Shown: positions 8,801 through 49,532, counted from the first letter of the stretch. The stretch: DNA of 64,000 nucleotides from Naegleria gruberi (GCA_000004985.1 GG738902.1); one strand, 5' to 3'. The notes: a model not told the origin generated them from the letters alone. Made by a program: numbers and translations.

Positions 8801-10590
8801 CAACTGTGGTTTGCAAATATTGGAACGAAACAACTAATGAATGGTTGAGTGATGGATGTAGCACCACAATCCTTTCGGCTGATCAAGTCTTGTGCTCATG
8901 CTATCACACAACAAAGTTTTCCTCCTTTGTGGATTATTCTAAAGTGAATTTCAGTACCAGAACTATTCAGACATCACTAGCCGTTGCCAACATCATTTTC
9001 AGTTCCTTATTTATTGCTGCAATTCTAGTTATCCTTGTGTTGTTGGTAATTTTCAGAAAATCCCAACCTGTAAAATCAAGATTTATTACTCCCTACTTTG
9101 CATTAACTGCCCTATTGATTGATAATTTGGTTTCTGGTATTATTGCCAAAGGACTTTTACTTGGAAATTACTCATTCAATGTAGTTATCATGACAAGTGT
9201 CTGTGCAGTAATTTCAAGTGCACTATTGGCAAGTGCAGTCTGGTGCTATTTTGTCATGTCCATTCGTTTCATCATCCACAGATACTTTTACGAATACATG
9301 ATGAGAGTGGTTGAGAACAGACAACAAAAGAATGCCGTTTTGGTTAAGATTTTGAACATTTTCAAACAGGATAAGCTTCTCATCTTGTCTAGTTTGATGA
9401 TTGGTTTTGGTTTTGTCTTGTACTTTACCATTTTTATCATTTTGAAGGGAGTGGATGCTTTCTCTGATTCTCAATTCACTTACTCAACAACCATTTCATT
9501 GTTTATTATTTTACTTTTCATGACGGCGATGGTAATTGCTATTTACATTTTAGACTTTTATTTGGACTTTACAAACAAACAATTAAGAGATGAATTAGTT
9601 GACATATCTGATGAAATAATGTTATTAGAAAGTGGAGATTCAAGCTTGAACAATCTCAATTCTAGAAAATCCCTTAAAATTACAAAACCTTTCGTTGATT
9701 TGTTGGAACAATCCCATATTAAGAAGTTTTTCAATTTATTCTACTCAAATGACAAGTTAATGTTCAGACCTGAGGCCATTTTCTTCATGTTAGGTATTTC
9801 ATTCTTTACCATTTCTTACTGCTTGGGATTTGCCAGTGTCCATGACCGTTACGTATCAAATCCAACTTCTACACAAATTCAAACAGTCGACATTCTCGAT
9901 GCAGTTGCATTCCTTTTTGAAGTCTTGATGACCGTTTGTTTGATTACTAGCTTTGGAGGTTTCTCTGTTGGTTGGGCCATTTTCACTGAAACCAGAAAGA
10001 GAAGTTGCTTCAAGGAATCCAGACAAGCTTCTGTCAATGCTGAGAGAATCAAATCTCAAAGACTTGAAAGCTACGAGGATCTTACCAACAGGTTTGATGT
10101 TTACAAGCTCATGAAGAACAAGTACTTGTTAAGACTCTTCCAACAATATGCCAAGTTGGAAATGTCACTAGAAAATTATATTGTTTGGATGCGAATTGAA
10201 CATGCCAGATCTAAATTTGCCAAATTGTGGGTTGATATGGATGGAGAAGCAGCATCTATCGAGGAATGGAATTCACTCTTGGAGGAATTACTTGGATGGC
10301 TAAAGGATCACTTGGATCCAGATGCAGAACTCGCTCTCAATGTCAGCCACCACTCTGTTAAACAATTCATTGCTGCTGTGCATATGCTAGAAAGCAAAAT
10401 TGACACCATTTCAACTAAGAACAGAGATTCCCTATTCAATTTGAAAGAAATGGTTAGACAAGCCATTGATTCATTAATCATCGATGTTCTCTACAATTTA
10501 ACAGACACCTATTCAAGATTTATCATCACGGATGAATACAAAGCTCTCAAAGAAGTAGAATCTGTTACCGAAATGAATACTTTCAAATAA
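5896..10590 (+). CDS. Adhesion-GPCR-like receptor (1564 aa): N-terminal signal/anchor, about 17 tandem EGF-like repeats, GPS/GAIN-like motif, 7TM region, C-terminal RGS domain.
   Basis: EGF units follow CYGVDSTDxSVCSGNGNCTSxNNCxCxxGYSGNxCQ. GPS-like motif is CKYWNETTNEWLSDGCSTTILSADQVLCSCYHTTKFSSF. Seven hydrophobic helices follow. The C-terminal YEDLTNRFDVYKLMKNKYLLRLFQQYAKLEMSLENYIVWMRIEHA ... LTDTYSRFIITDEYKAL resembles the RGS fold (EFSEENLEFW ... DSYPRFLKS). Continuous ORF, no intron seen. Confidence 0.75.
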   Translation: MPLHQTFIYTGKLQPDETKHTTFPTTRTISRNSRISFSSSTITTNLIISILLLAFITSLIQSLYYQIVYSSNNDNKLYSHTFFVNAATTCYGVDSTDPSVCSGNGNCTSKNNCECNDGFSGNKCQTETVKCYGVVDTDPTVCSGHGNCSSKNNCLCDSGYSGNKCQTFDGTSSISCYGIDSTDSSVCNYNGNCTATNNCVCNQGYSGNQCQTLDSSFKCYGVDSTDVSVCNGNGNCTSTNNCVCKSGYTGNQCQNEDSSFKCYGVDSTDISVCSGNGNCTSSNNCECKSGYTGNQCQSIDSSFKCYGVDSIDISVCNGNGNCTSSNNCVCKSGYSGNQCQTYDGGNSGSFKCYGVDSSDISVCSGNGNCTSANNCECKAGYSGNQCQTFSTSFKCYGVDSTDSSVCNGNGNCTSSNNCECKSGYTGNQCQSIDSSFKCYGVDSMDVSVCNGNGNCTSSNNCVCKSGYSGNQCQNNDGSSTIKCYGIDSTDPSVCSGHGICSSTNDCQCENGYSGNKCQTFANETSTFKCYGVDSSDPTVCSGNGNCTSTNNCQCQSGFSGNKCQTTVNYCFGYDENDNNVCGGPDRGKCTSNDVCECKGSYVGYDCGAFVSDKSLIKITSKYSKILSTNTDINFITISIPKLTNSYKGIENRLKSTLVIFSSNVTIDYSTTGMIEQFQLYKNMTLGVYSLNLTIVDTTYNIQVAATVESSIFSILTLEQTTQSVDTLTAKEIAQVTKQLNQITNQQQFISTVVSTLKENVNNYTIDDGLDLTSSLLDISNVKLDTKSKLGISETLKSYAQNMIEKFDNFTTEQVKPVAINIVSVASNILNQSIFTEPSSKFVVIGNSIQSVEKTLSLVTIVNPTENLSIETSMIKVLLISKSEYKNLHTIDKDYTLNLPELGFEYSFGLVKYENYLTEDLQNTSSISDILQVRPMLNGVFSPLRHLSTPFNLTFSIKHFGAPPSNETVATVVCKYWNETTNEWLSDGCSTTILSADQVLCSCYHTTKFSSFVDYSKVNFSTRTIQTSLAVANIIFSSLFIAAILVILVLLVIFRKSQPVKSRFITPYFALTALLIDNLVSGIIAKGLLLGNYSFNVVIMTSVCAVISSALLASAVWCYFVMSIRFIIHRYFYEYMMRVVENRQQKNAVLVKILNIFKQDKLLILSSLMIGFGFVLYFTIFIILKGVDAFSDSQFTYSTTISLFIILLFMTAMVIAIYILDFYLDFTNKQLRDELVDISDEIMLLESGDSSLNNLNSRKSLKITKPFVDLLEQSHIKKFFNLFYSNDKLMFRPEAIFFMLGISFFTISYCLGFASVHDRYVSNPTSTQIQTVDILDAVAFLFEVLMTVCLITSFGGFSVGWAIFTETRKRSCFKESRQASVNAERIKSQRLESYEDLTNRFDVYKLMKNKYLLRLFQQYAKLEMSLENYIVWMRIEHARSKFAKLWVDMDGEAASIEEWNSLLEELLGWLKDHLDPDAELALNVSHHSVKQFIAAVHMLESKIDTISTKNRDSLFNLKEMVRQAIDSLIIDVLYNLTDTYSRFIITDEYKALKEVESVTEMNTFK
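6160..7720 (+). repeat. In-frame tandem array of about 150-bp units encoding the EGF-like repeats; accounts for the overlapping ORF-track artefacts at 6329..6829 and 6845..7492.
   Basis: Near-identical stretches recur every roughly 150 nt, for example tgttatggtgttgattcgacagat... and ggaaatggaaattgtac. Confidence 0.8.
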
Positions 10591-10672
10591 AATTTATTCA
10601 GGAAGCACGTATGATTAAGGCAAAGTTTTATTTAAATCCACGTATACTTTACTTCTTTATAAAATGAGATAA

Positions 10673-11910
10673 TTATCTTTTAATGGGCGGGCGTGTCTGT
10701 AAATCACTGATTGAATAATCCTGGAATATTTTCAACATGCGCTCTCTATTCATCAATTTTGTAGTGTGTGTAATTATTAAATCTCCTCTTTTACAAACGA
10801 ATTCGAATAGATCATCCCCAATATAATCCTCATGAATATAGTGAATGTAAAGAAGAATCTCAGGATACTTTGAAAAAAAGGGTGCAACTTCATAATATTC
10901 ATAACATGTACTCACTGAGACATCATACCGTAAAGTTAATTCCAAATATTTCAATCTTTCGGTTCTAGGAATATAGCGGATACACTTTGGTACAATTGAA
11001 AGAATTTGAGGTAGGAATGTAGCTTGTTCCTTGACAAAGCGAAATGTTGAGGGATCTCTTTTCACACAATTCATTACAATTTCCTGATAATTTTCAATGG
11101 CAGGATCAACATATTGGAGGGTGAGAGGATCCAACTCAAGTGCTGGTATTACAATTTCTGGATTCTTTTTGAAAGCTGCAGTCATAAATTGAAGATTGTG
11201 TGGCAGTTTTCTAATGGCCAATAGAGCCATTTCTAAATCAGATTTGAATTCAAAATAAATGTATCTGAATAAATGTGGATTAATTTCTAGAGCCATCTTG
11301 GTTAATTCTCTATCTTTTCTCAATTCCAATTTGATAAATGAAAAGGAAGCTGGATTTAATCTCATATTAATCAATGATTCTTTTACAATTTGCATATCCT
11401 GAAGAGATTCATCAAATTTTTCAAATGAAACTCCATAATTGAGCATTTCCATCATTAATTCTCTATCATTTCTATAAGAATGATTCGTTGGAAAATGATG
11501 TGCTTCCCTCTTTTTTTATCCAATTTCAGAATTTTCAAAAGATATTCAATCGATGAATCGTGACTCAAGGCATAAATTACAAATTCTCTCATTTTAAACA
11601 ATGATTCATCTAAAAGTTTTGCAATTTTTTGTGGATTTCCTTTTCCACTTTGAATTATTTGCATCATGAGTTCTTTATCTTTTCTAAAAGATTTTGGAAT
11701 TAGCTCAAGACATTCTGGATCAATTTCAAATGCCATTAACATTGATTCTCTTGTTTCTTTCCAATTATCTGGGAAATATGAAAATTTTGGATTGATTTGT
11801 TGTCCACTTTTGGCAGCCATCTTGCCTAATTCAAAATCCTTTTCCAAATTATTGACATTTGGCACATATCCATATTTGCTAGCCACCAATTCAAGAATTT
11901 CTCTATCCAT
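10673..11910 (-). pseudogene. DUF4116-repeat protein gene interrupted by a frameshift near 11455-11520; either a pseudogene or a sequencing indel in a homopolymer.
   Basis: Two abutting ORFs (11455..11910 and 10673..11455) both carry the 24-26-aa repeats (IDPECLELIPKSFRKDKELMMQII and LEINPHLFRYIYFEFKSDLEMALLAI). The downstream frame stays open upstream through ...SYRNDRELMMEMLNYG, which is itself a repeat unit. No GT...AG intron is available there. An A7/T7 run lies at about 11510-11516. Confidence 0.55.
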
Positions 11911-12248
11911 ACACCAATTAGACTCTTTAAATAATGAATACAGACAATCAGAATCTCTATTCGAAGAGAGTTTCTAATAGCTATTCTATGTTCGACCACG
12001 ACACTCAAGTATATCTTGAATTTCCATTTTTTTAGAACATTCAATCAATATTTCTTTATCAACACTGCGCAACCAACCAACTCTTTTCAAATACTCCCAA
12101 TAATTTGTTTCCTTTCTCAACTGGAACAAAAGCACGCTACATGATTAACAGATCGAAGTAAAAACTAGTTTGTTCGTTGCTTAGTTGGTTATTTTCACTT
12201 TTGTATTAAGACTAATATTTAATTGAATAGATTTCTTAATGAATGTTA

Positions 12249-12307
12249 GGGGATGTAGCTCACATGGTAGAGCGCTTCTTTAGCATGGAAGAGGTACGGG
12301 GATCGAT
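12249..12307 (+). pseudogene. Truncated tRNA-Ala(AGC) copy: the 5' 59 nt are identical to the intact gene at 3285..3357, then the sequence diverges and runs straight into a T6 tract.
   Basis: GGGGATGTAGCTCACATGGTAGAGCGCTTCTTTAGCATGGAAGAGGTACGGGGATCGAT matches the intact copy. It is followed by CTTTTTTGTACGC rather than ACCCCGCATCTCCA, so the 3' T-stem and acceptor strand are missing. Upstream flanks share TTGTATTAAGACT...GAATGT(A/T)AG. Confidence 0.75.
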
Positions 12308-12785
12308 CTTTTTTGTACGCTTCTATCTTTTTCAATGGAACAAGTTGAAATTACCTTCAATTATTTAAAATAGAATCTTTTTGTAGTATTATTTGAATAA
12401 CATTCTTAGCTAAGAACCATTAGATGACAAAAAACCAAAAACCGCCCAGCAAAACCGTTACACCATTATAAATGGTTTTTCAAAAAAAAACACCATCAAG
12501 AATTTATTCTCACCTGCAATGAAGTAACAACGACACACAGGTGCTAGTTTCAAATCCACATCAAATTACCTGTCTAGATGCCCTTTGCCAATTCTCTTTT
12601 ACCAAGAGCAAAGTGAAAGTCCCCAAAAGATGTTTCCACCATAATACAAAAACAAGTAACACATATTTTCATATATGAATAATATCTATTGCAAGATATT
12701 ATAATCACCATCAAACTATTTGACAAATAAAATTAGCCGGCTGGTTTGCCATCATAATATCCAAGTTGGATTTCAAACAACAAAA

Positions 12786-15700
12786 ATGTCCAAATTGCTT
12801 CTCCTACTATTACTTTCTCTTTTATTTGCAACAACAACAACACGAATAATCAGTGCCTACATCCTGCTACCACAACAATCAGCATCATCTTCACTTTATA
12901 ATAACCAAGATGATAATTCATCATCAACAACTATAATAACATCATCCTCATCATCATCAAATGTATTACTTTCTGCTACAGCAGCAGTGGTGGTGGAGAG
13001 GAATAAAACATTCTATATCAATGAAGCGAATGGCACACAAAGTGGTGATTGTTCCGAGCCTTCAAAAGCCTGCTCCTCCATCCTCTATTTAACTGGTTTG
13101 ATTTCACGATCGACCGATTATTTAACAAACAAGTTTTTAATCTATCTAATAGGAGATTGTATTAAATATGAACCAATAACATTCAGTACCATGACCTTGA
13201 CGAGTACTTTTATATTTCTCTCATACAATGATTCAAATAATACAAATAATAGTAGTGGCAGTACAGTTAATAGAGTGACATTGGCAAATAAGAGATGGTT
13301 AGCTCAATTTTCAAGTATGGGATTTGAAAATTTAATTGTGGACAAGATGGAAATATTTCCAGGAGATGGATTTTCATTTGTGAATTGTCTGGTTAGAGGG
13401 ATGAGTTTGAAGAGAGGATTTACTTGGATGATTGTGAAGAATACAGTGATTGAGGATTCAATTTTTGGAGATGATAGTGTCACGAGTTATATGAGGAATA
13501 AGGACGATAGACCAGTGATTGAAATTACACAGAGTAGAATTGTTCGTTCAAAGATGAATTTAGAATCAATTACTAATGTTATGAACTGTAATTTTACCGA
13601 ATCTAATATGACGATTAGCAATTCAGTATCTTCAACATTGCAGAATATTGCTGTTAACAATTCTAGAATTTTATTAAGAGTTGTCTTTTATATTAATGTG
13701 AATTATTTTGATTGCTCCAATAGTAGTTCATCATTTGCAATTGATGGAGCCAATGAGGTTAAAATTGTGAGGTTCAATTTTGAGAATTGTAATAATTATG
13801 GAGAAAGTACTCTCTTCTCTACTGTTAGGACTTTAAATATTGATCACATGAATTATATTAGAAATAAGGGTGCACTTACGTTTTTAGGAGTTTACCAAAC
13901 TAATATGGGATCATCTAATTTTATTGAGAATAGAAATGGTGCCATTCAAGTGGAAAATCATGGCGACTCACCAACATATTTTGTCGTGCAAGGTTCCAAG
14001 TTTTTGAGAAATAGCAGATTATCAAATGGTGGAGCTATTTATATGGATTCAGCTTTATCAAATTTCCATACCTATTCTAGTGTATTTGAAGATAATATGG
14101 CATTGAATGGAGGTGCTGTATATGTATTAGCATCCATTAGAAATACCTATACCAATACTGTTTTTAACAGAAATAAGGTTACAGACTGTGCTAAATGCGG
14201 TAATGGTGGAGCTCTTTATTCCAACACAAACTCTCTAGAGTGGAGATCCTCCAATTTTACAAATAATGTAGCCATTAAGGGAGGAGCTGTTTTTATTGAT
14301 AGAGTACCATCTATTACCTTTGAAACTCAGGATATTGTGTTTCAAAATAATGAAGCTCAATTTGGATCAGACTTTTTCTTTGAAAAGTATGAAGTTGACA
14401 AGTTCCCTGTTGATAAATATGCAAACTCTACTGCCAGCTCAATTATGAAGAGTTTCAAAGTACTCATGAATAATATTGAGATAGACTCAGGAAAGAACTT
14501 TGATGTCTATCCAGGTGAAACGATACAATTACAATATTCCTTTGAAGACATATTTGGAAATAGAATTGAATCTTCTCATAATCAACCTGTCATATCCTCT
14601 GATGCAAATATTACTCTATACACAGTTTTTACCTCAAATACGGACTTTAAGTTGCTCTTTGATTTGAATAATAAGGGAGAGATATCTACAACTGTTGAAT
14701 TGGTCATTGCCTATTCAGAATTTACTGTAATTAGTGAATTGCATCTCACCATTGCTCCATGTCCACAGTATCATCGTTTACAACAGGTCAATTTTAATGG
14801 ATACAAATGTGTCAAGCAAGATGTATTGCTTATTATCATTTCCTCTGTACTTTCATTTATTTCCCTGCTTATAATAATACCATTCATTTCATTCATTCTT
14901 TACAGGTTTGCACTCAAAAAGTTGTTTATATTCTACAAGAGAGAACGAGAGGAGAGAAGAATTGAAAAGCAATTGAAAGATTACCTCTTTAGAAATATTA
15001 ATGCCAATGATGAGAAACAAGGTCTCCTCAAATCTTTGACACATTCTAATATGATAATTCCAATCAGTGACATTCAAATTGTTTCCAAAATAGGAGAAGG
15101 ATCGAATGGTGTAGTATATTTGGGGCGATGGAAACAAACTGACGTTGCCCTCAAAAGTATCAAACATGATTCTACCGATATTGATATTGAAAATCAATTA
15201 GAAGAATTTGAACATGAAGCTTCCTTATTAGCAAGCTTACGTCATCCCAATGTCATTTCATTTTATGGTATTAGTTTCGGTCTCAATGTACAATACATGG
15301 TAGTTGAATATTCAGTTAATGGAAGTTTGGACAAGGCAATTCATCAATCCAAGATTAAGAAGAAGGTTCTCAGTTTTAGAGATAAGATTAATATTGTTCT
15401 TGGAATTTCAAAAGGTTTAAATTACTTGCATTCATTGAGACCACAAATGATTGTTCACAGGTATGTATTTGAATAGTCTTATTGAGATTAATACTGAAAT
15501 TATCAAATAATTTTAGAGATTTGAAACCTGGAAATATTCTATTGGATAGTAATTTTGAGCCAAAGGTAACAGATTTTGGAATGAGTCGATTTATTGGAAC
15601 TGAAAATTCATCCATGACCATGAATGTTGGTACATTACGATATTGTGCACCTGAGATATTCAACAATGACAAACACGATGCCAATCACATGGTCGATGTC

Positions 15701-19133: not shown

Positions 19134-19970
19134 TTATTGAACAAATGGTTCAAAACCAAACTGAGTCATTCCCTTGTGCATAATATTTAATTCTATTGTC
19201 ACCTCTCCTCCAACACTTTCAGTCCTGGTTACCTCTCTTCCTTCACCTTTACAAACCATTGTCGAGTCGAAATATTCTGGGGCCACTCCCTTTACGGAAC
19301 CAATCCATTTCTGTATTAAGGATGTACTTTGAGGTTTAAACAGTTTAACTTTCAGACTGTGTTTTCCAGCTCCGATTGGTACTTGACACCATCCATATCC
19401 GATAATCTTTTGCTTTCCAGTTCCTTCTTGAACAACAAGACACAACTTTGGCCATCCATAAGGATTTGTACTTCTAAAACAAATCTCCAGAGGGAAATTC
19501 CAAATATACTTTGAGTTGAATCCTCTTGGCCTCATTGCAACCTGTGTCACACCACTTTCCAAGCTTACTCCTTCTCCAGTTGTTCTTGCAATTTCCCAAT
19601 CTTGCCCATAAACAAATTGAAAACTACACGAAATATTCATATTGCCAGGAAATTCTGCATGACTTATTACACCATTCACAATCACATAAAACGATGAAGT
19701 GGCATTATTATTTTGAACTGATGTATAATTATTATTCATGGTTGTATTATTGAGGGTGATATTTGTTGTATTCAAATTGATGCTATTCATCGGATCAAGA
19801 TTATTTACACTTGTTGATAAAATACTACTCGCTGAGGTTTCTATAATGTTGTTTGCTGCTTCAATATTTTCCGATATTATTGGCTGTTTATTTGGTCTGC
19901 CGAGCATACCTGCCGTACTTGGTCGTGAACTAACACCTGCTGGCTTTGAGCTTGATGGTCTATTGAGCAT
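19134..19970 (-). CDS. B9-domain protein (B9D1/MKS1-like ciliary transition-zone component) with an N/S/T-rich N-terminal extension. Further upstream exons are possible.
   Basis: FYVIVNGVISHAEFPG...FVYGQDWE...IWNFPLEICFRSTNPYGWPKL...GYGWCQVP..GKH...PEYFDS..V.KGEGREVTRTESVGGEV aligns along its length with B9D1 (VNGQ.ESA.FP; FVYGQDW; VWNFPIDV.FKSTNPYGWPQ; GEGREVTRV). Confidence 0.8.
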   Translation of the reverse strand: MLNRPSSSKPAGVSSRPSTAGMLGRPNKQPIISENIEAANNIIETSASSILSTSVNNLDPMNSINLNTTNITLNNTTMNNNYTSVQNNNATSSFYVIVNGVISHAEFPGNMNISCSFQFVYGQDWEIARTTGEGVSLESGVTQVAMRPRGFNSKYIWNFPLEICFRSTNPYGWPKLCLVVQEGTGKQKIIGYGWCQVPIGAGKHSLKVKLFKPQSTSLIQKWIGSVKGVAPEYFDSTMVCKGEGREVTRTESVGGEVTIELNIMHKGMTQFGFEPFVQ

Positions 19971-20347: not shown

Positions 20348-21763
20348 TTGCAAACAGAGAAAAACAGTAAGGTTAATCCAAATCAAAAAAAAATGTCCGA
20401 AAAACAACCTTCATCAAACTCTTCAAACAACAATAACACAAAGCATGATAGTAATAATAGTAATAATAATAACGACAATGGAATGACCAATAAGATTGGA
20501 CATAAACAATTCATCTTGGAAAAACCCATCGATACAATATTTACAACAAGTAATTCTTCATCAAGAAGTTTCATAACACCACTAACACCAGAACAACAGG
20601 AAAGGTTGAAAATGATCGATCCAAAGCAGGCTATGATGTTGTATTTTGTTACAAGTACATTCTTTTCACGTCTGTTTGCTCATCCATTGGACAGAATTTC
20701 AACCATTCTCCGAACACAACATGTTCTTCCAAATGCGTATGGTACAAGCTTTTATACAAATTTGCCAACAGCAGTATCTTCATCATTGGTACAACCACAG
20801 CAACAGGCTCCTTTTAGAGGTGCCATTGATGCTTTGAAAAAACTTCCAAAGGATAGAACATTGTGGAGAGGATTGGCTCCCGATGTTTATGGGTAGGTTC
20901 CATATAAACTATGGATTTTAATATTTGGATTAACATTTGGAAATTGGATTTTTATTAATCTGGAAATTTATTATTATGGATTTTTTAATATTTAATTAAA
21001 TCAATTTGGATTTATTAATATTTCGGAAAGTCGCTTATGTGCAAAAGTAGTGGAATTACAATTTGCAGATGAAATTAACAACTTTATTCAACCTTGGATG
21101 GGAACTCTTGTAGAACAAGATCCAAACGATCCAAGAAAGAAACTTTTAAATACAAAGGTGTTGGCTACCTCTGTAATATCTGGTGCTGTTGCATCCTTCC
21201 TTATTTCTTATCCATTCAGTGTTGTTTCAACAAGAATGCAATCCAATTTAATTCCACTCCATGAAGTGAAATATAATATGGATTGGCAAATGGTGAACAA
21301 GACCAACTTTTCCAATGTATGGCAATCATTTAAATCAATCTATCAATTTGAAGGAATAAGAGGATTCTATACTGGTTTATCAGCTGCTGTATCTGGTCTT
21401 GCTGTTTATAGAGGCATCTATTTTGCCTTATTCGATTCATTGAGACGATTGGGAATGAGTGACAATTATTCATTGAGTGAGAAATTCTTATATAGTCAAG
21501 GTTGTATATTCACTGCTGGTCTCAGTGCTTATCCTTTCCGTCTCATTGGTGATCGATTGAAAGCTCAAGCTGTCTTTAGAAAATTATACACGGAGGAGGA
21601 AACTCAGCTATTCTATAGAGGAACTTTGGATGCCATGAAAAAGATTTACCAACAAGAGGGAATTAGAGGATATTACAGAGGATTTGTTTTTTCATTGGGC
21701 ACAAGTTATGCAGGTGCCATCTTACTAAGCATGTTTGTTGCCCTTGGATCGAGACAATTTTAA
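20348..21763 (+). CDS. Mitochondrial carrier family protein. Exon 1 ends at 20892; intron 20893..21030 (GTAGGT...GAAAG); exon 2 21031..21763. The true start is probably ATG 20393 (MSEKQPS...).
   Basis: Exon 1 carries an N-rich tract, then HPLDRISTILR...GAIDALKKL...LWRGLAPDVYG. Exon 2 carries LATSVISGAVASFLISYPFSVV, GFYTGLSAAVSG and GIRGYYRGFVFSLGTSYAGAIL, the three carrier repeats. The only in-frame AG acceptor between the in-frame stop at 21017-19 and the downstream ORF is at 21029-30. Confidence 0.65.
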
Positions 21764-21909
21764 CTGTCACCCTTTAGCAAATGTTCCACAAGATCAGTAG
21801 ATAAATAATAATTAATTGTACAAAACAAATTTCATGAATGGATCAACAACAATAACAGTACTGATTAAAATAGTATTAAGGTTAGCAAAAATTTTATTGA
21901 GGGAATAAC

Positions 21910-22896
21910 TTATTCAGTCTTCTTTACATCAGTCTTCTTCCTCTTATAACTTTGAATATAAAAGTTCAAGAACAAGGCCAAGAAGGCAGCAACAGTCAAG
22001 TCAACCAAGAAGAATGGATAATAATTACCAGCACAAGTTTGGTTATCTCCATACTTGAACCACAACCAAACCTTTGGAACAACCAAATCAAAAACAAATT
22101 GAATAATTTGCATTCTGGTAATCCATGGCTTGATAACATTCAAACAACCTGGAGTAAAGATTGGAGAATTCTTAACAGTACAAACATAAAAGTAGAAATA
22201 CATGATAACGTGAACACCAGCATTCAAAGTTGAAGGGAACCACATCATTTGTGACTTTTCCAAAATGACATACCAACACAATAATAAGGTAATCATGTGA
22301 TGGAAGGTATGCAAGAAAGTCAAACTCTTACACTTGATCATTAAAAAGACAGTATCTAACAATTCATAATATTTGGACAAGTAGAAAATGTACAACCAGA
22401 AAGGAACTGCACCCTTTCCCATTCTATTAGGAACATCACAAGTTAAGGCAGAGAGTTTTTCCATAAAGCTAGCTTCTGGAATTTCATTAACAACTTCAAC
22501 AGCTTCACCAACAAATCCCAAAACCATGATCAAACTCAACACACTGAGGAAAATATTGTGGAATTTAATGAACATTTCCAAGAGTGGATGTTTCATTGGT
22601 GTATTATTTCTAACCTTTTTCATATACAGTGGAAGTAAATAAAGAGACAATCCATAACCAACAACAGCTGTTGCTGGATAGATCCAGTGAGATATTGGTG
22701 CTTCATTGTAAATGTACTTGAAATCGTGAATGTACTGGGACATTCCTTCACCATTAGGAATGAATTGTAAAAGTCTATCGATGAACACCATACTGATTCG
22801 AGATGATGATGAATATAAGAGTGGGTGTTGAGTGTGTTGGTTTTTTTCAAAAGTTTGAGCATACAGTCTTTGCACCAACCAGCCTTTATGGTTCAA
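21910..22896 (-). CDS. ELO family fatty-acid elongase.
   Basis: Motifs SKYYELLDTVFLMIKCK (KxxExxDT), FLHTFHHMIT (HxxHH), NAGVHVIMYFYFY (HxxMYxYY) and TRMQIIQFV (TxxQxxQ). Multiple TM helices. Start codon uncertain. Confidence 0.8.
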   Translation of the reverse strand: MNHKGWLVQRLYAQTFEKNQHTQHPLLYSSSSRISMVFIDRLLQFIPNGEGMSQYIHDFKYIYNEAPISHWIYPATAVVGYGLSLYLLPLYMKKVRNNTPMKHPLLEMFIKFHNIFLSVLSLIMVLGFVGEAVEVVNEIPEASFMEKLSALTCDVPNRMGKGAVPFWLYIFYLSKYYELLDTVFLMIKCKSLTFLHTFHHMITLLLCWYVILEKSQMMWFPSTLNAGVHVIMYFYFYVCTVKNSPIFTPGCLNVIKPWITRMQIIQFVFDLVVPKVWLWFKYGDNQTCAGNYYPFFLVDLTVAAFLALFLNFYIQSYKRKKTDVKKTE

Positions 22897-23949
22897 ACAA
22901 CAACAAGATCATCTTCACAGCCTCATTGGAAATTTTCAATAATTGAAACATCATCAACAAGGTGATGCTTGAAGCTGTTGTTTTTTGATTTTTACTCCAA
23001 CAACGGATCCTACAAATTGAAAAGTCCAAAATTGTGCGGTATGAAGCAATTTGTGTTATTAGGAAGTAAATAATATTGATAAGGTGGACGAGAATGGTGG
23101 AGGATCATTGATTGAGGATTATATGATGATTATTTTAATAATTAATATTGATCATCTTGTGTTGAATATTAATGTCGATTTTGTTGAGGTCTGAAGCCTA
23201 ATTGAACCGTAATTAAAATGGATGTTCACCACGCCTGTTGCCGATCCGATTTGTAATACTAGACAAACTCTTATTAAATAAATAGGCATGACCATCATCA
23301 ATGCACAATAATAATTTAATATACGATCGTCATGATGATGATGATGCAACTTTAACGTTGATGATGATGAGCATGGAAGGATGAAAGTTCTCCTGACGCG
23401 TGAATTTCAAAATGTGTATTTACTTTTGAAACTTCGTTAATAATAATAACAGAGAATTAAATAGTGGAATATCAACGGTACTATTATAATCTGTTATTGA
23501 TAATTTATTGTAAGGAAATTGAATTCAAATTGTAAGGTGGAGCAAATTTTCACACAGTACCAACTTGCTTCCATTATCGGTCTATTTTGATTTTGTCCGT
23601 TAGAGTGAAATTCCACCATTTGGAAAATTTTATTATTTGGGATTGTGAAATTTGACAGTGGTCACAGACCTTTTTTGTGGTTGTATAATAACTAGTAATT
23701 TACAGTAATGATAAGGTTGTTTGACTTTGAGGTGGAGTAAGGATGTCCTTCATGAGTGTCCTTACTTGTCGAACAAGGCATTTCGGTCACAAATGATTTT
23801 CAATACCAAGACTGCAAATATTACTTGTGAAAATAAGAAAAGGTGATAGATGTGTTTAGCCTAAAGGTTTAGGTCTGAAAACAGATTAGGATAATTTTCT
23901 TCAATTCGAATTAAAAAAATACCATTGAGATTGACCATCAAACGTCAAT

Positions 23950-25269
23950 ATGACTGAACAACAAACAGTGTTAATTGATGATCTTCAATTAATTTCAAAT
24001 CAATTTCCATGTGGTGATATTCTTTGGGAAATTTTATCATTTTGTAATGATTTTACATTTATTGTAATGAATTGTGCACTAGTTTCCAAACAGTGGTACC
24101 ATGTCATTTTGGAAAGATGTAAACTCTCATTAACCTGCAATTCGGATCAGAAATTGAAGGGAAAATTTCTTGAAAGAGTTTCAAATTTCACAGTTAAAAA
24201 GAATGAAGAAGGAAATTTGTTTAATTGTCAAATTTTTGAATGTTTGAAGAATTTGACAAGAATTGATATCAGTGATAATGAAATTAGCGATGAAAGGGTT
24301 AAGCATTTTGGTAATTTGACTCATTTGACAAATCTTGTAATTAATTGTAACGACATTGGTGTAGAGGGAGCTAAATGTCTTTGTCAACTGAATCAATTAA
24401 CAAGGCTTAATATTGGAAACAACAGTCTTGAGACTGAAGGTGCTAAATACATTAGTGAACTGAAGAATTTGACCAAACTTGATATCGCTCGCAACTGTAT
24501 TGGTGATAGAGGTGCTCAATTTATTACTGAAATGAAACAACTGACTTCTCTAAACCTTAACAGGAATGGAATTGAATATTTAGGAGCAAAATTTATTAGT
24601 GAAATGTATCAATTAACGAGTCTTGATATCAGTAACAATGACATTGGTTCTGAAGGAGCTAAACAAATTAGCAAACTCGACCAATTGACCAAACTATATA
24701 TTTACGATAATAATATTGGTGATGAAGGAGCTATGCACATTAGCGAAATGAAACAACTAACTAATCTCGATATTAGCAGGAATGATATTGACTCAGAAGG
24801 TGCCAAATCCATATGTGAACTCTATCAATTAACAAATCTCAATATTTGTTCGAATTACATTGGTGAAACAGGTGCCAAGCATATCAGTGAAATGAATAAT
24901 TTGACCATTCTTGAAATTGGCAGTAATGAAATTGGATCTGAAGGAGCGTATCATATCAGCAGAATGCACCAATTGACTAGGCTCATGATTTTTGCTAATG
25001 ATATTGGAGAAAAAGGGGCCAAACATGTTTCTGAGATGAAACAATTAACTAAACTCGATATTTATGATAATAATATTGGTGATGAGGGAACTATACACAT
25101 TAGCGAAATGAAACAATTAACCTACCTCGATGTTTCAGCCAATAATATTGGTCACGAAGGTGCTGAATATATTAGGAAATTGAATCGATTGACATTTCTT
25201 AATGTTCACTATAATTCATTCAGTGATAGTGAATCAGAACTTATAGAAAAGGAGTTAATGAAGGATTAA
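23950..25269 (+). CDS. F-box-like / RNI-type leucine-rich-repeat protein (439 aa).
   Basis: The N-terminus, IDDLQLISNQFPCGDILWEILSFC...VSKQWYHVI, is F-box-like. About 13 tandem 24-aa units follow, of the form LTxLxIxxNxIGxEGAKxISEMKQ. Confidence 0.7.
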   Translation: MTEQQTVLIDDLQLISNQFPCGDILWEILSFCNDFTFIVMNCALVSKQWYHVILERCKLSLTCNSDQKLKGKFLERVSNFTVKKNEEGNLFNCQIFECLKNLTRIDISDNEISDERVKHFGNLTHLTNLVINCNDIGVEGAKCLCQLNQLTRLNIGNNSLETEGAKYISELKNLTKLDIARNCIGDRGAQFITEMKQLTSLNLNRNGIEYLGAKFISEMYQLTSLDISNNDIGSEGAKQISKLDQLTKLYIYDNNIGDEGAMHISEMKQLTNLDISRNDIDSEGAKSICELYQLTNLNICSNYIGETGAKHISEMNNLTILEIGSNEIGSEGAYHISRMHQLTRLMIFANDIGEKGAKHVSEMKQLTKLDIYDNNIGDEGTIHISEMKQLTYLDVSANNIGHEGAEYIRKLNRLTFLNVHYNSFSDSESELIEKELMKD

Positions 25270-26568: not shown

Positions 26569-26986
26569 TGATATAGTCATTCACATGTGGACATGAAATT
26601 TAATAAAAATTCAAGAAAACAATCTTTTTCTCAATGTTGGAATACATGAAAATTAAGAACTTGTAAGTCCCAATTAATGTAAATTCCTTGTCTGATTTGG
26701 CGAGATATGTTACAATGGAAAAATTCATTAAAATTCATCTGCGTCTCACTTTACTGGTCAGAACTTCTCCCGCCAAATCGTAAACGAGTAACCAATCATA
26801 ACTGTTACGCTTGAAAAATTTACTTTAGAAAAAAAAAACTCAATTCTCTCCCCTCTACACTCTTTCAGTTGTTGTTGCAACAAATTTTTATCGTAGTGAG
26901 GGTTTTTATATATTTTGTATAGTTCATCATCCAAATCCAAATCATCATCAACCACCTTACTTACTATATTATTTATTAAATCGAGA

Positions 26987-29900
26987 ATGGGTTGCGGAAA
27001 TTCAAAATCAACACTCGGTGTAGTTGAGACCGTCGAAGAAAAACCAAAACAACAAGCCACTGTCAATAACACCACTAATACTACCACTGCTGTCATGACA
27101 GGAACACTTGAACCAGAGGCACCAAAGAAGAAGGATGGTTTCTGTTACTTCTTTGGTCTTGACAGTCAAACTAAGGAAAACCTCACTGAAGGGAATAAGG
27201 ATATGAAGGAACTACTTGGAGGAAAAGGTGCTAACTTGTGCGAAATGTGCAATTTAGGTATTAATGTTCCTCCTGGATTTACTGTTTCTACAGAAGCCTG
27301 TGAACACTTTAGCCAGCTTCATAACCTTGCTACTTCAGCAGGAGAAGAAGGAGCTGAAAAAAAGAATCTCACTTTACCAGAAAACATTCAAACACAAGTC
27401 GACGAATATCTCAAAAAATTGGAACAAGCAACTGGAAAGAAATTTACCGATTCATATGAAAATGATACAGATAAGGTTCTCTTAATTTCTGTGAGATCAG
27501 GAGCTGCCATTTCAATGCCTGGAATGATGGACACTATTCTTAACCTTGGTATTTGTGACAAGAATATTACTCAACTCGTTAAAAACTTTGGTGGAAATGA
27601 AAAATTCGCTTGGGATTCATATCGTAGTCTCGTTCAAATGTTCGGTGAAGTTGTCATGTCAGTCAAGCCAGAACATTTCGAAGACAATATCAAAAAGCAA
27701 AAGGAAAAGAGAGGTATTACTCATGATTCTGAATTGAATTTGGAAGAAATTCAACAAATCGTTCAAGATCACAAACTTACTATTTTCGAACAAACTGGAG
27801 GTGAAGACTTCCCACAAGATGTTCGTCAACAATTGTACAGAGCTATTATTGCTGTCTTTAACTCATGGCACAATAAGCGTGCTGTGCAATATAGAAAGAT
27901 TCACAACATTACTGGTCTTAAGGGAACTGCTGTAAATATTCAATCCATGGTCTTTGGTAATGTTGATGAACGTTCATGTTCTGGTGTCTGTTTCAGTAGA
28001 AATCCTTCAACAGGTGAAAATCTATTCTATGGTGAATATATGATTCAAGCACAAGGTGAAGCTATTGTTGCTGGTCAAAGAACTCCAGAAAAGATTGAAA
28101 CCTTGGCTACTAACTTCCCAGAATGTAACACTAGTTTGAAGGAAATCAGTACCAAATTGGAAAAGCACTTTAAGGATGTCCAAGATATGGAATTCACAAT
28201 TGAACAAAATACTCTCTATATGTTGCAATGCAGAAATGGTAAAAAGACAATTCAAGCTTCTCTCAAGATTTACTGTGACATGATAGATGAAGGTCTTATC
28301 AATGAAAGAGAAGCCATCTCAAAGATTGATGCTACTCAACTCAACCAAATGCTCCATCCATTCTTGGATGATTCTGAAAAGGCTCATCACGAACCTTTGG
28401 CAACTGGTTTACCAGCAAGTCCTGGTGCTGTAGTTGGTAGAATTGCTTTCACCAGTGAACAAGCCATTAAAATGTCTGAAACCAGAAAGGAAGATGGTGA
28501 TGTCATCTTGGTCAGAGAACAAACAAGCACTGAAGATTTGGCTGGTATGCATGCTTCTCAAGGTTTCTTGACTACTAATGGTGGTCTTACTTCTCATGCT
28601 GCTGTTGTTTCTCGTCAACAAGGTAAATGCTGTGTAAGTGGATGTAGCTTGCTTTATGTCACTAGTGAAGAATCTTGTACAATTAATGGAACCCTCTTTA
28701 ATCAAGGTGATATTATTACTATTGATGGTTCAACTGGTAATGTCTACGGTAAGGCTCTCAAGACAACTAGACCAGGTATTTCTCAACCTGACTTTGTCAG
28801 AATTATGGATATTGAAAAGAAGTACAGAACTATGAGTGTCTATGCTAACGCTGATACATCTGTCGATGCTCATAAGGCTGTTGAATTCGGTGCTGAAGGT
28901 ATTGGATTGTGTAGAACTGAGCACATGTTCTTTGAAAAGACAAGAATAGTTGACATGAGAAGAATGATTGTTGCCTCCACCACAGAAAAGAGACAAGAAG
29001 CTATTAATGTTCTCAAAGATTATCAACGTTCTGATTTCCTTTCCCTCTTCCATGCTATGGAAGGAAAGAAGGTCACTATTAGATTGTTAGATCCTCCACT
29101 TCACGAATTTTTACCAGAAGATCCACAAGAAATTGAAGAATTGGCTTTGGCTCTTGGTGAATCTGTTAAGGATGTTACCCTTACTGTCTCTCAACTCAAG
29201 GAAAAGAATCCAATGTTGGGTCATCGTGGTTGTAGATTGGGTATTACCTTCCCCGAGATTACTCAAATGCAAGTTGAAGCCATTTTTGAAGCTGCTATTG
29301 ATGCTACTCATAAGGGCGAAGTTGTTGTTGATATTATGGTTCCATTAGTTCAATCTGTTCAAGAACTTGTCAACCAAAAGGAAATTATTGAAAAAGTTGC
29401 TTCATCATTGTTTGCCAAGCATGAAGACAGAAAATATCTCATTCATTACAGAGTTGGTTGTATGATTGAAACTCCAAGAGCTGTTTTGATGGCTAAAGAA
29501 CTTGCTGGTGTTGCTGATTTCTTCAGTATTGGAAGTAATGACTTGACTCAAATGACCTTTGGTTTCAGTAGAGACGACAGTGGTAAATTCCTTAAATATT
29601 ATCTCGAACGTGACTTGATTGAAAATGATCCATTCGAAGTTTTGGATACAGAAGGTGTTGGAAAGATTATTCAACTCACTGTCCAAACTGGTAGAGAAGC
29701 AAAGAATGGTTTGACTGTTGGTTTGTGCGGTGAACATGGTGGTGAATCTCACTCTGTTAAATTCTTGTACCAATGCGGTCTTTCATATGTCAGTTGTTCA
29801 CCTTATAGAATTCCAATCGCTAGACTTTCTGCTGCTCAAGAATCTGTCAAGAATTGGAGAAATGTTATTTGTGTTAATGGTGGTCCAGGATCAGGAAAGG

Positions 29901-30412
29901 GCACACAATGTGCCAAACTTGTTGAAAAGTATGGTTTTATCCATTATAGTACAGGTGATTTGTTGAGAGCTGAAGCTGCTAAGGATACAGAACAGGGTAG
30001 AATGATCTCGTCATACATTAAGGAAGGTAAGATTGTGCCTGGTGCTGTTACTCTTGGTTTGTTAAGAAATGCTATTTTGAACCATCCTAAAAAGGATGCT
30101 ACGTTCTTGATCGATGGCTTCCCAAGAGAAATGCAACAAGCTGTTGACTTTGAAGCTCATGTCTGTAAATTCAAGTTTGTCCTCTTCTTTGATTGTCCAG
30201 AAGAAATTTTGGAACAAAGATTGTTAGAAAGAGGTAAGACGAGTGGTAGATCTGATGACAATGCCGAAAGTATTAAGAAGAGATTCAAGACCTATAGCGA
30301 CCAAACAATGCCAGTTATTGGATACTTTAAGAAGACTGATAGAGTCAAGACAATTGATAGTTCAAAGACACAAGAAGAAGTGTTTGCTGAAGTATGCAAA
30401 TTATTTGATTAA
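26987..30412 (+). CDS. Pyruvate,phosphate dikinase fused in-frame to a C-terminal adenylate kinase / UMP-CMP kinase-like domain (from about 29860). N-terminal MGCGNSKS dual-acylation motif.
   Basis: PPDK hallmarks run the length of the protein (LLGGKGANLCEM, GINVPPGFTV, GGLTSHAAVVSRQQGKCCVSG, GAEGIGLCRTEHMFF, SIGSNDLTQMTFG, LCGEHGG, SYVSCSPYRIPIARLSAAQ). There is then no stop before NGGPGSGKGTQC...GDLLRAE...IDGFPRE...RLLERGKTSGRSDDN, which is the P-loop/LID of adenylate kinase. Gly2, Cys3 and Ser6 follow ATG 26987. Confidence 0.85.
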   Translation: MGCGNSKSTLGVVETVEEKPKQQATVNNTTNTTTAVMTGTLEPEAPKKKDGFCYFFGLDSQTKENLTEGNKDMKELLGGKGANLCEMCNLGINVPPGFTVSTEACEHFSQLHNLATSAGEEGAEKKNLTLPENIQTQVDEYLKKLEQATGKKFTDSYENDTDKVLLISVRSGAAISMPGMMDTILNLGICDKNITQLVKNFGGNEKFAWDSYRSLVQMFGEVVMSVKPEHFEDNIKKQKEKRGITHDSELNLEEIQQIVQDHKLTIFEQTGGEDFPQDVRQQLYRAIIAVFNSWHNKRAVQYRKIHNITGLKGTAVNIQSMVFGNVDERSCSGVCFSRNPSTGENLFYGEYMIQAQGEAIVAGQRTPEKIETLATNFPECNTSLKEISTKLEKHFKDVQDMEFTIEQNTLYMLQCRNGKKTIQASLKIYCDMIDEGLINEREAISKIDATQLNQMLHPFLDDSEKAHHEPLATGLPASPGAVVGRIAFTSEQAIKMSETRKEDGDVILVREQTSTEDLAGMHASQGFLTTNGGLTSHAAVVSRQQGKCCVSGCSLLYVTSEESCTINGTLFNQGDIITIDGSTGNVYGKALKTTRPGISQPDFVRIMDIEKKYRTMSVYANADTSVDAHKAVEFGAEGIGLCRTEHMFFEKTRIVDMRRMIVASTTEKRQEAINVLKDYQRSDFLSLFHAMEGKKVTIRLLDPPLHEFLPEDPQEIEELALALGESVKDVTLTVSQLKEKNPMLGHRGCRLGITFPEITQMQVEAIFEAAIDATHKGEVVVDIMVPLVQSVQELVNQKEIIEKVASSLFAKHEDRKYLIHYRVGCMIETPRAVLMAKELAGVADFFSIGSNDLTQMTFGFSRDDSGKFLKYYLERDLIENDPFEVLDTEGVGKIIQLTVQTGREAKNGLTVGLCGEHGGESHSVKFLYQCGLSYVSCSPYRIPIARLSAAQESVKNWRNVICVNGGPGSGKGTQCAKLVEKYGFIHYSTGDLLRAEAAKDTEQGRMISSYIKEGKIVPGAVTLGLLRNAILNHPKKDATFLIDGFPREMQQAVDFEAHVCKFKFVLFFDCPEEILEQRLLERGKTSGRSDDNAESIKKRFKTYSDQTMPVIGYFKKTDRVKTIDSSKTQEEVFAEVCKLFD

Positions 30413-30435
30413 ATGTAAATAAATATATAAATATT

Positions 30436-31353
30436 CTAATTTCCATACGTCTCTGCAAACTTTTGAAGTAAATATTGGTAAGCTGTTTTGTTAACAGATT
30501 CAATAAAAAACTCCTTGTCTGGTTGTCCAAAGAATGCAATACTATACCTATCTGATTCATAATTAGACAGGACAACTTGATGAGGAACACTCTTATATTC
30601 TTGATCAGTCCATTCTTGCATCAAATCTCCACAATTTACAATAATGGCATCTTTAACACAAGGTGCATCAATCATTTCATTAGTGATTCGGTCCAAAACT
30701 TTCAAACCACCTGTACTATCCTGACATAACAATGTTATTGAACCATAGTCAGAGTGAATTCCACATCCATTACTAAATTTTGGAGCACTTGAATCAAGTT
30801 TAGGATAATGTAAATATCTCAAACTATGTTCCATTTCAGAGTGAGCCAGAGCAAAATCATCCGTTTGTTTACTCAATCCTCTCTGTAAATCACCCAATAA
30901 TTCAATCAATAGACCATGCAATTCCAAGAATAGTTTCTTTGAAAATTCCTCAAATCCCTTAACAGAACCATGTTCATCTTCATTAGGAAAATAAACTTTT
31001 CCATAATCTACATCCGACTTGGACATTCGAACATTGTAAGCCTCCTTCAGATCAATGTCCTTTCCATTTAATTTCTCACTATTCGTACTAATGTAACCAC
31101 TTTCTCCCTTCACTGTATGAAGTTCTTGTTTCACTTGTTTCGGCAATTCAAAAAACAGTTTTGAAAATTCAAAAGCTTGATCAATTAATGGAATTAATGG
31201 ATGATCAACAAGATAGAAAAATCCGATACTGTTCAGGGCATGTTTAATTTCGTCCAATCTCGTGTCGCTGTTGTATGAAATGATGGGAATTAAAGTTTCG
31301 TTTGGTTTCATTTTTTTGAGTTTCGTAAGGTAGGTACTTTCCCAAGTCCACAC
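30436..31353 (-). CDS. 2-oxoglutarate/Fe(II)-dependent dioxygenase family protein.
   Basis: GIHSDYGSITLL (HxD), a later His in SVPHQVV, and RYSIAFF (RxS 2OG-binding) at the C-terminus. IPNS/flavonol-synthase-like fold. Confidence 0.65.
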   Translation of the reverse strand: MWTWESTYLTKLKKMKPNETLIPIISYNSDTRLDEIKHALNSIGFFYLVDHPLIPLIDQAFEFSKLFFELPKQVKQELHTVKGESGYISTNSEKLNGKDIDLKEAYNVRMSKSDVDYGKVYFPNEDEHGSVKGFEEFSKKLFLELHGLLIELLGDLQRGLSKQTDDFALAHSEMEHSLRYLHYPKLDSSAPKFSNGCGIHSDYGSITLLCQDSTGGLKVLDRITNEMIDAPCVKDAIIVNCGDLMQEWTDQEYKSVPHQVVLSNYESDRYSIAFFGQPDKEFFIESVNKTAYQYLLQKFAETYGN

Positions 31354-49381: not shown

Positions 49382-49532
49382 TTTGATGTTTGGTGTTGTT
49401 TTGTTTTTTTTGAATGAAATTTTCTTTTTATCACCATATTAAGGCCTTAATGAAAGTTCATTATGGTTTGGGAACTTGTAATTTCTAGAAGTTGCGTTTG
49501 GAGTTTAATTAGAATGTTTAAAAATTGAAGTA

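Follow-up and report, generated by a model that had tools for sequence, protein, structure and literature searches.

A pyruvate,phosphate dikinase fused to a nucleoside monophosphate kinase behind a predicted lipid-anchor signal in Naegleria

RESULTS

Gene structure and domain layout

The DNA analyzed here is a 64,000-nt stretch of the Naegleria gruberi genome (GCA_000004985.1, GG738902.1; hereafter the window, with positions counted from its start), in which a single gene joins a pyruvate,phosphate dikinase (PPDK) to a nucleoside monophosphate (NMP) kinase behind an N-terminal motif that is predicted to be lipidated. The open reading frame (ORF) runs on the plus strand from an ATG at 26987 to a TAA at 30410-30412 and encodes 1,141 amino acids with zero internal stops, bearing out the proposal, in an earlier note on this DNA, of a PPDK reading without interruption into a kinase at 26987-30412. 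With 1,141 codons in DNA of 34 to 38% GC and domain E values to 1e-79, this ORF cannot be put down to chance. The same frame is closed by a TGA at 26897, 90 nt 5' of the ATG, and from 26716 to 26986 none of the frames has an ATG, leaving the 270 nt upstream of the start clear; glycine is therefore residue 2 and MGCGNSKS the expected N terminus. The product is 100% identical over 1,141 amino acids to XP_002671847.1 (EFC39103.1; UniProt D2VVU5), so the gene model is already in the databases. It became public with the deposition of the N. gruberi genome, labeled "pyruvate phosphate dikinase" alone, and the UniRef name of the Naegleria lovaniensis ortholog is "UMP-CMP kinase." In a collinear alignment with its orthologs and 37 other PPDKs, the N. 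gruberi sequence has no gap at the sites where the Naegleria fowleri and N. lovaniensis genes have introns, which means that the N. gruberi gene has none. The features of the gene, all on the plus strand, are as follows.

26987..30412, plus strand: intronless coding sequence of the PPDK-NMP kinase fusion, 1,141 codons plus TAA, equivalent to XP_002671847.1
26987..27013, plus strand: MGCGNSKST (amino acids 1-9), predicted N-myristoylation (Gly2) and S-palmitoylation (Cys3) signal, from motif and conservation
27014..27151, plus strand: disordered, fast-evolving tether from anchor to enzyme (amino acids 10-55), from AlphaFold2 (AF2) predicted local distance difference test (pLDDT) values and low identity
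27152..28486, plus strand: PPDK nucleotide-binding (ATP-grasp) domain, with GGKGANL at amino acids 78-84, from PF01326; site motifs invariant in 40 PPDKs
28499..28738, plus strand: swivelling phosphohistidine domain, with the catalytic His537 in TSHAAVV (nt 28589-28609), from PF00391; T535, S536, and H537 invariant
28799..29842, plus strand: TIM barrel binding phosphoenolpyruvate (PEP) or pyruvate, with RTEHMF, RLLDPPLHEF, MIETPRA, GSNDLTQ, and GLCGEHGG, from PF02896
29843..29860, plus strand: domain junction, ...AAQESVKN/WRN..., from AF2 secondary structure; no stop and no frameshift
29861..30409, plus strand: short-LID NMP kinase domain of the AK1/URA6/UMP-CMP kinase class, 183 residues, from PF00406
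29879-29905, plus strand: kinase P-loop motif GGPGSGKGT, amino acids 965-973
29948-29968, plus strand: kinase motif STGDLLR, amino acids 988-994
30113-30139, plus strand: kinase motif DGFPREMQQ, amino acids 1043-1051
30230-30262, plus strand: kinase LID motif RGKTSGRSDDN, amino acids 1082-1092

The strings quoted in the note are all present at their expected places (as parts of, or within, GGPGSGKGT, RGKTSGRSDDN, and MGCGNSKST), and a Pfam search found PPDK_N (PF01326) at amino acids 75-371 (E value 2e-51), PEP-utilizers (PF00391) at 505-584 (2e-19), PEP-utilizers_C (PF02896) at 605-952 (6e-79), and ADK (PF00406) at 964-1117 (1.7e-48). An AF2 model of the fusion had a mean pLDDT of 78.7 and a predicted template modeling score of 0.72. 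In its secondary structure the last PPDK helix spans residues 939-955 and the first kinase strand residues 959-964, leaving a connector of about 3 residues. The model was computed from an alignment designated A3; a previous alignment, A2, in which kinase-only sequences were mixed with PPDKs, had been dropped because the short sequences were misaligned.

Pyruvate,phosphate dikinase part

Against the curated equivalog TIGR01828 the PPDK part scored 1,151.9 bits (cutoff, 843.45), while it fell far under the cutoffs of the PEP synthase models, and all three domains of the PPDK architecture (PF01326, PF00391, and PF02896) were above their gathering scores. Residues H537, R643, R699, E828, D852, and C914 do not vary among 40 PPDKs. 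From PPDK structural work, we take H537 to be the phosphohistidine, C914 (in GLCGEHGG) the proton donor, and R643, R699, E828, and D852 the PEP and Mg ligands. The PPDK part is thus predicted to be a complete and active pyruvate,phosphate dikinase (EC 2.7.9.1) with intact catalytic motifs. It shares the three-domain architecture and all catalytic residues with canonical PPDKs, being 64 to 66% identical to the unfused heterolobosean paralogs (N. gruberi, 915 amino acids; Willaertia magna, 912 amino acids) and ca. 52 to 55% identical to prokaryotic PPDKs, but it differs from them in carrying an acylation signal with a tether and a C-terminal NMP kinase, which we found in no other PPDK.

Kinase domain

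By curated family models, motifs, and best matches, the C-terminal domain is classed as a URA6-like short-LID NMP kinase. The features of the ADK fold, namely, the P-loop GxPGxGKGT, the NMP-site arginines (GDLLR and DGFPR), and the Arg/Asp cluster of the LID, are all found and are kept in three Naegleria species. The best Protein Data Bank (PDB) matches were yeast URA6 (213 bits), Dictyostelium UMP/CMP kinase (190), human CMPK1 (179), and human AK1 (176). The domain has the P-loop, NMP-binding, and LID motifs in common with these solved kinases (PDB 1UKY, 1QF9, 1TEV, and 1Z83), at 58% identity with URA6 and 46% with human AK1. However, at the variable position of the S-x-G-D motif, where URA6 and the other two solved UMP/CMP kinases have Ala, as do the other heterolobosean paralogs, the fused domains carry Thr or Ser (Thr989 in N. 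gruberi), as does an environmental relative, P0185 (Ser); AK1 has Thr. A further difference from URA6 and the UMP/CMP kinases is the attachment to a PPDK. The Gln of DGFPRExxQ (N. gruberi Gln1051) is found in all heterolobosean members, as in AK1, whereas Asn takes its place in the UMP/CMP kinases of Dictyostelium and humans. In AK1, Thr39 is a residue of the AMP site, and its mutation to Ala shifts specificity toward CMP and UMP. For URA6 itself, phosphorylating activity is similarly high on AMP, CMP, and UMP (PMC13397275). Since URA6 takes AMP and the fused domains carry the AK1-like Thr/Ser and Gln, use of AMP is compatible with membership of the UMP-CMP family, and we consider it likely that the kinase domain is AMP competent.

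N-terminal motif and tether

The first nine residues, MGCGNSKST, fit the N-myristoylation pattern G-{EDRKHPFYW}-x(2)-[STAGCN]-{P}, with Ser6, Lys7, and Cys3 in place. Ser6 and Lys7 are favored for N-myristoylation, and Cys3 is the classic palmitoylation position. These residues are identical (9/9) in the three Naegleria species, with two to three synonymous and no nonsynonymous changes, and the sequence 5' of the ATG is unrelated between species, so that conservation starts exactly at the ATG. The linker of ca. 45 residues that follows is only 23 to 24% identical between N. gruberi and either N. fowleri or N. lovaniensis, its dN/dS ratio between the latter two is 0.14, and AF2 gives amino acids 1-47 a pLDDT below 50 and no secondary structure. 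No such extension is present in the other PPDKs of our alignments (40 PPDKs), and the fusion protein has no transmembrane or hydrophobic segment (maximum Kyte-Doolittle 19-residue mean, 1.2). An invariant motif followed by a freely evolving disordered tether and then the enzyme is the pattern that a lipid anchor predicts. The dual acylation read by the earlier note into MGCGNSKS stands as far as the motif, Cys3, and the invariance in three species beside a 23% identical linker are concerned, with lipidation itself a prediction.

Orthologs, domain junction, and selection

The same fusion is encoded by N. fowleri (P0002, 74% identity) and N. lovaniensis (P0241, 1,139 amino acids). For comparison with the N. 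gruberi gene we used positions 10001-13780 of N. fowleri VFQX01000007.1 (L001) and positions 6001-9668 of an N. lovaniensis locus (L003). In all three species the upstream order is the same, a Mito_carr gene (+), an ELO gene (-), one further gene, and the fusion, and the N. fowleri and N. lovaniensis genes are positional orthologs of the N. gruberi one. Both contain four introns at identical positions (54 to 114 nt, all GT..AG), which are missing from N. gruberi, indicating that they were either lost from N. gruberi or acquired by the lineage of the other two. The domain junction falls within a single 2,061-nt exon in both (L001 10934-12994; L003 6885-8945). In this independent sequence there is neither a stop nor a frameshift at the junction, and the P-loop and the LID are intact in both species.

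The N. fowleri reference protein (XP_044567465.1; KAF0982752.1) has no P-loop, reading VVFV-------LGTQC in the alignment. The genomic sequence holds a 21-nt micro-exon at L001 13075-13095 (GAGGTCCTGGTTCAGGAAAAG) with canonical GT..AG borders, which encodes GPGSGKG and restores VVFVLGGPGSGKGTQC; its N. lovaniensis counterpart (L003 9020-9040) has one synonymous difference and is annotated there. The reference protein is therefore misannotated, its P-loop having been lost by skipping of the micro-exon, and we rejected the notion that the N. fowleri kinase domain is dead, since both species encode the P-loop on this exon.

Identity to N. gruberi is 73 to 81% across all enzyme domains and is equal for the PPDK and the kinase. 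Because synonymous sites are saturated between N. gruberi and N. fowleri (proportion of synonymous differences, 0.69 to 0.76), dN/dS was estimated for the pair N. fowleri and N. lovaniensis by the Nei-Gojobori method, giving 0.034 for the PPDK and 0.037 for the kinase domain. Judged by these ratios, the two halves are under equally strong purifying selection, the junction included. That the fusion is an artifact of assembly or annotation merging two adjacent genes has practically no probability left: merged gene models are frequent in general, and nothing more specific favors it, but the ORF is continuous, with a connector of ca. 3 residues, two more genomes, sequenced independently, have the junction within a single exon, and purifying selection spans the junction.

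Distribution and phylogeny

In a search of 5.8 billion protein clusters, only Naegleria proteins covered the full query; the next matches were unfused PPDKs from N. gruberi (915 amino acids), W. magna (912 amino acids), and N. lovaniensis (887 amino acids), and no fused copy is annotated in Willaertia. We also ran residues 605-1141 with phmmer, exhaustively, over 1.84 billion representative proteins. Among the best 150 matches, the Naegleria cluster was the only one with a single alignment spanning the PEP and kinase domains, and no other PPDK-kinase fusion appeared, the rest being proteins with multiple kinase domains or plain PPDKs. Five ambiguous matches, long or aligned in two stretches, were checked with Pfam and proved to be plain PPDKs or multikinase proteins, with no fusion. 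A junction-spanning query of 282 amino acids was uninformative, as tandem-kinase proteins filled the best 120 matches and the query's own protein was unlisted. In the databases searched, the PPDK-kinase architecture is thus restricted to Naegleria. No animal PPDK was returned among the protein search matches. A full-text literature search found no description of the tripartite architecture, although key subscription papers lay outside its reach and a prior mention is possible. The parts and their functional pairing are already known; for the tripartite architecture we found no second example.

In a neighbor-joining (NJ) tree the fused PPDKs formed a clade with 100% bootstrap, sister to a clade of unfused PPDKs from Naegleria and Willaertia. 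This is tentative evidence that the PPDK was duplicated before Naegleria and Willaertia diverged, a timing limited by the NJ method, missing support for the unfused clade, and possible rate effects. Outside the Heterolobosea, the named best PPDK matches among those listed (P0008 to P0120) were prokaryotic, with 49 to 54% identity and none eukaryotic; they came from Woesearchaeota, Nanoarchaeota, other archaea, bacteria of candidate phyla (Levybacteria and Patescibacteria, for example), and Thermobrachium, a hint that the heterolobosean PPDK may be of prokaryotic origin by gene transfer.

The kinase domain falls in a clade specific to the Heterolobosea (100% bootstrap), with URA6 as nearest outgroup, and within it groups with its closest paralog, P0185 (97.5% bootstrap, 73% identity). 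This environmental protein of 393 amino acids, from ENA ERZ27315067 k141_1759587 (L002, 17-1198), has an N-terminal region of ca. 210 residues without a Pfam match. Stand-alone kinase paralogs (P0188 of W. magna, P0196 of N. lovaniensis, P0227, P0229, P0231, P0236, and P0238) are 63 to 71% identical and carry an N-terminal helix of ca. 55 residues. The best PDB matches of this helix were weak (E values of 0.05 to 0.5) and consistently of the Dpy-30/RIIa type, mostly axonemal (FAP385, AK8, EFCAB10, NME5, and Sdc1), and these paralogs may be axoneme-docked nucleotide kinases. Considered together, the paralogs and P0185 share 63 to 73% identity with the fused domain, counted over ungapped columns of the alignment, but they have the Dpy-30/RIIa-like helix, or the ca. 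210-residue region of P0185, in place of the PPDK. The searches also returned many proteins with two to seven tandem AK1/URA6-type kinase domains, the named examples being from green algae, molluscs, and nematodes; among the proteins seen were P0244 (1,503 amino acids), with seven kinase stretches, and P0346 (1,001 amino acids), with two AK1/URA6-type kinase domains and a 5'-nucleotidase C-terminal domain.

Genomic neighborhood

The syntenic genes upstream of the fusion span 21050-25269 in the window, 3996-9450 in L001, and 1067-5733 in L003. The third of them (+) encodes a leucine-rich repeat protein in N. gruberi, with no recorded Pfam match in N. fowleri and N. lovaniensis. Downstream, N. 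gruberi has a 2-oxoglutarate (2OG) oxygenase gene and the other two species a SNAP-family gene. The N. gruberi 2OG-Fe(II) oxygenase ORF (30436-31353, minus strand) is convergent with the fusion, and since the two stops are 23 nt apart (span, 30410-30438), the 3' untranslated regions of the two genes must overlap. The B9 gene, from which a flagellated organism had been surmised earlier, is real (19134-19970, minus strand; B9-C2, PF07162, E value 7e-43) and belongs to a family annotated as ciliary basal body associated. G+C content is 25% in the bin 48001-50000 and 32 to 38% elsewhere in the window.

DISCUSSION

We consider it rather probable that the fusion is a membrane-tethered bifunctional phosphotransfer enzyme with the net reaction PEP + pyrophosphate (PPi) + 2 ADP <-> pyruvate + Pi + 2 ATP. 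The architecture, the intact motifs of both enzymes, the purifying selection, the conservation of the acylation motif, and the restriction to Naegleria were observed directly, and what we infer is that the protein is lipidated, that AMP is the acceptor, which way the flux runs, and which membrane is involved. Removal of Met1, N-myristoylation of Gly2, and palmitoylation of Cys3 would pin the flexible tether of ca. 45 residues to the cytoplasmic face of a membrane, by default the plasma membrane, the flagellar membrane included when flagella are present. The short-LID kinase would interconvert 2 ADP and ATP + AMP, so that in the glycolytic direction it would make the AMP for the PPDK from local ADP and two ATP would be obtained per PEP, while in the reverse direction it would remove the AMP product. 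The gain would be colocalization and a fixed 1:1 stoichiometry at a site with rapid ATP turnover. Adenylate kinase is well established as the link between ADP and reactions that form or use AMP, coupling of the PPDK type included (PMC12965863). Naegleria has, moreover, a phosphofructokinase described as PPi dependent and AMP sensitive in a title cited in PMC7729029 and PMC12965863, and PPi and AMP would for that reason be central currencies of its glycolysis.

Several observations weigh against this reading. The kinase domain scored 228.4 bits with TIGR01359, the UMP-CMP kinase family model, above its cutoff of 207.6, and 209.5 bits with TIGR01360, the AK1 equivalog, whose cutoff is 284.1, and it is therefore not filed as an AK1 ortholog; in the NJ trees it falls in the heterolobosean clade, whose nearest characterized relative is a uridylate kinase. 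It is also joined to the PEP-binding barrel, with PPDK_N, the AMP/ATP-binding domain according to Pfam, at the other end of the chain. Its pLDDT is just 55 to 83, which is modest because alignment A3, with no kinase-only sequences, covered this domain with three sequences, and the interdomain geometry of the model is accordingly left uninterpreted. Finally, myristoylation is predicted from the motif and its conservation. The first of these points bears on whether the C-terminal domain could be a pyrimidine (UMP/CMP) kinase, with PPDK-made ATP feeding UDP and CDP synthesis, for example in membrane-proximal sugar-nucleotide or phospholipid (CDP-) metabolism, and no AMP cycling. This is improbable in our judgment, even though both TIGR scores, the uridylate and UMP/CMP kinases at the top of the PDB matches, and the UniRef label of the N. 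lovaniensis ortholog speak for it. TIGR01359 is a "subfamily" and not an "equivalog" model, so that passing it leaves the acceptor nucleotide unfixed; the best match, URA6, works equally well with AMP (PMC13397275); the fused clade has swapped Ala for the Thr/Ser of the AK1 position and keeps the AK1-type Gln, not Asn; and PPDK chemistry has no stoichiometric tie to UMP or CMP, AMP being a PPDK substrate. The earlier wording "adenylate-kinase or UMP-CMP-kinase-like" was an apt hedge, TIGR01359 being passed and TIGR01360 failed, with AMP specificity a matter of prediction. The channeling of AMP between PPDK and kinase proposed in the same note found no support, as the connector of ca. 3 residues ties the kinase to the PEP-binding and not to the nucleotide-binding domain, making a direct physical tunnel unlikely; since that is so, the benefit of the fusion would lie in proximity, colocalization, and fixed stoichiometry. 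As to the N terminus, the motif might go unused, being unlipidated or bypassed by a downstream Met start, with the fusion cytosolic: many MG- proteins are not N-myristoyltransferase substrates, and a second in-frame Met occurs in the linker (...TTAVMTG...). We hold this to be quite improbable, because all nine residues are kept, with synonymous substitutions only, beside a 23% identical linker, the conservation boundary coincides exactly with the ATG with no competing ATGs upstream, and the linker Met is not kept in N. fowleri or N. lovaniensis.

Direction and location of the tethered bifunctional enzyme leave room for other readings. The same protein could be gluconeogenic (pyruvate + 2 ATP + Pi -> PEP + 2 ADP + PPi), the kinase pulling the reaction by removal of AMP, as stromal adenylate kinase does with C4-plant PPDK. 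PPDK is reversible, and a gluconeogenic role has been proposed in plants (PMC12965863, PMC4403315); N. gruberi, according to a review (PMC7729029), prefers fatty acids as fuel and would therefore need gluconeogenesis, and the second, unfused PPDK paralog could serve glycolysis. We regard this possibility as a serious rival but a doubtful one, since the PPi-dependent phosphofructokinase consumes PPi in glycolysis, so that a PPi-making PPDK would need a sink, and a membrane tether is easier to explain by local ATP supply than by PEP synthesis; the sequence itself gives no discrimination of direction. A flagellar-membrane energy module, made during the amoeba-to-flagellate transformation and supplying ATP for dynein and intraflagellar transport, in line with the earlier note's suggestion of the flagellum as the membrane, is also unlikely, somewhat more so. 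Dual acylation sends calflagins and the arginine kinase AK3 to the flagellar membrane of trypanosomes (PMC4517888, PMC5617996), in Naegleria differentiation glycolytic enzymes are reported to fall into a group with flagellum-associated genes (Fritz-Laylin and Cande 2010, as cited in PMC7729029), and the N-terminal helix of the kinase paralogs weakly matches the axonemal Dpy-30/RIIa-type proteins FAP385, AK8, EFCAB10, and NME5. However, acylation is insufficient alone in trypanosomes, where a Lys-rich patch is also needed (PMC4517888), and the first 25 residues of the fusion hold 3 K/R and 3 D/E and thus lack a patch of the calflagin/AK3 type (6 to 7 positive residues in the first ca. 25), a trypanosome rule that may not transfer to Naegleria. 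Furthermore, Naegleria spends most of its life as an amoeba, and the plasma membrane is the default destination predicted by such a tag. Improbable, too, in our view, is a membrane-anchored recycler of AMP and PPi, in which PEP would be a diffusible energy carrier from which ATP is restored at the plasma or flagellar membrane, the AMP and PPi into which ATP is split by membrane-associated reactions (adenylyl cyclase and then phosphodiesterase, or, in this lipid-burning amoeba, fatty-acyl-CoA synthetases) being exactly the two cosubstrates of PPDK. If true, it would parallel the creatine and arginine phosphate shuttles, with PEP as the carrier; to our knowledge, no PEP-based membrane recycler system has been described.

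One of the closest known systems is the unfused pair of PPDK and adenylate kinase, which occurs in the PPi glycolysis of anaerobic protists and in C4-plant chloroplasts. Net chemistry is the same there, with AMP as shared intermediate, but the two are separate soluble proteins, in contrast to the one polypeptide with a predicted membrane tag found here. Lipid-anchored phosphotransfer enzymes, to which the myristoylated mammalian AK1-beta also belongs, offer precedents. A calflagin-like N terminus for dual acylation is found in the flagellar arginine kinase AK3 of T. brucei (PMC4517888), and adenylate kinase 2 of P. falciparum is N-acylated (PMC4912828, PMC4409355). Both resemble the fusion in having an N-terminal Gly2 (±Cys) acylation signal, which puts an ATP-buffering enzyme on a membrane; they differ in not being fused to a glycolytic ATP-generating enzyme, and the Lys-rich patch of AK3 is missing in the fusion.

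A long-standing view has PPDK and adenylate kinase working as partners in PPi-dependent glycolysis, raising the yield from one to two ATP per PEP. The existence in nature of a fusion kept by strong purifying selection is "Rosetta-stone" evidence for this pairing being physiologically real, and the fusion offers a single recombinant protein with which PPDK-kinase coupling could be measured. The conserved anchor signal suggests a spatially organized energy metabolism in an amoeboflagellate, whether at the cortex, in feeding structures, or in flagella, paralleling the arginine and adenylate kinases that trypanosomes have in their flagella. As the architecture was found in Naegleria alone, including the brain-eating pathogen N. 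fowleri, and no animal PPDK was returned, the fusion is a conceivable selective target or marker.

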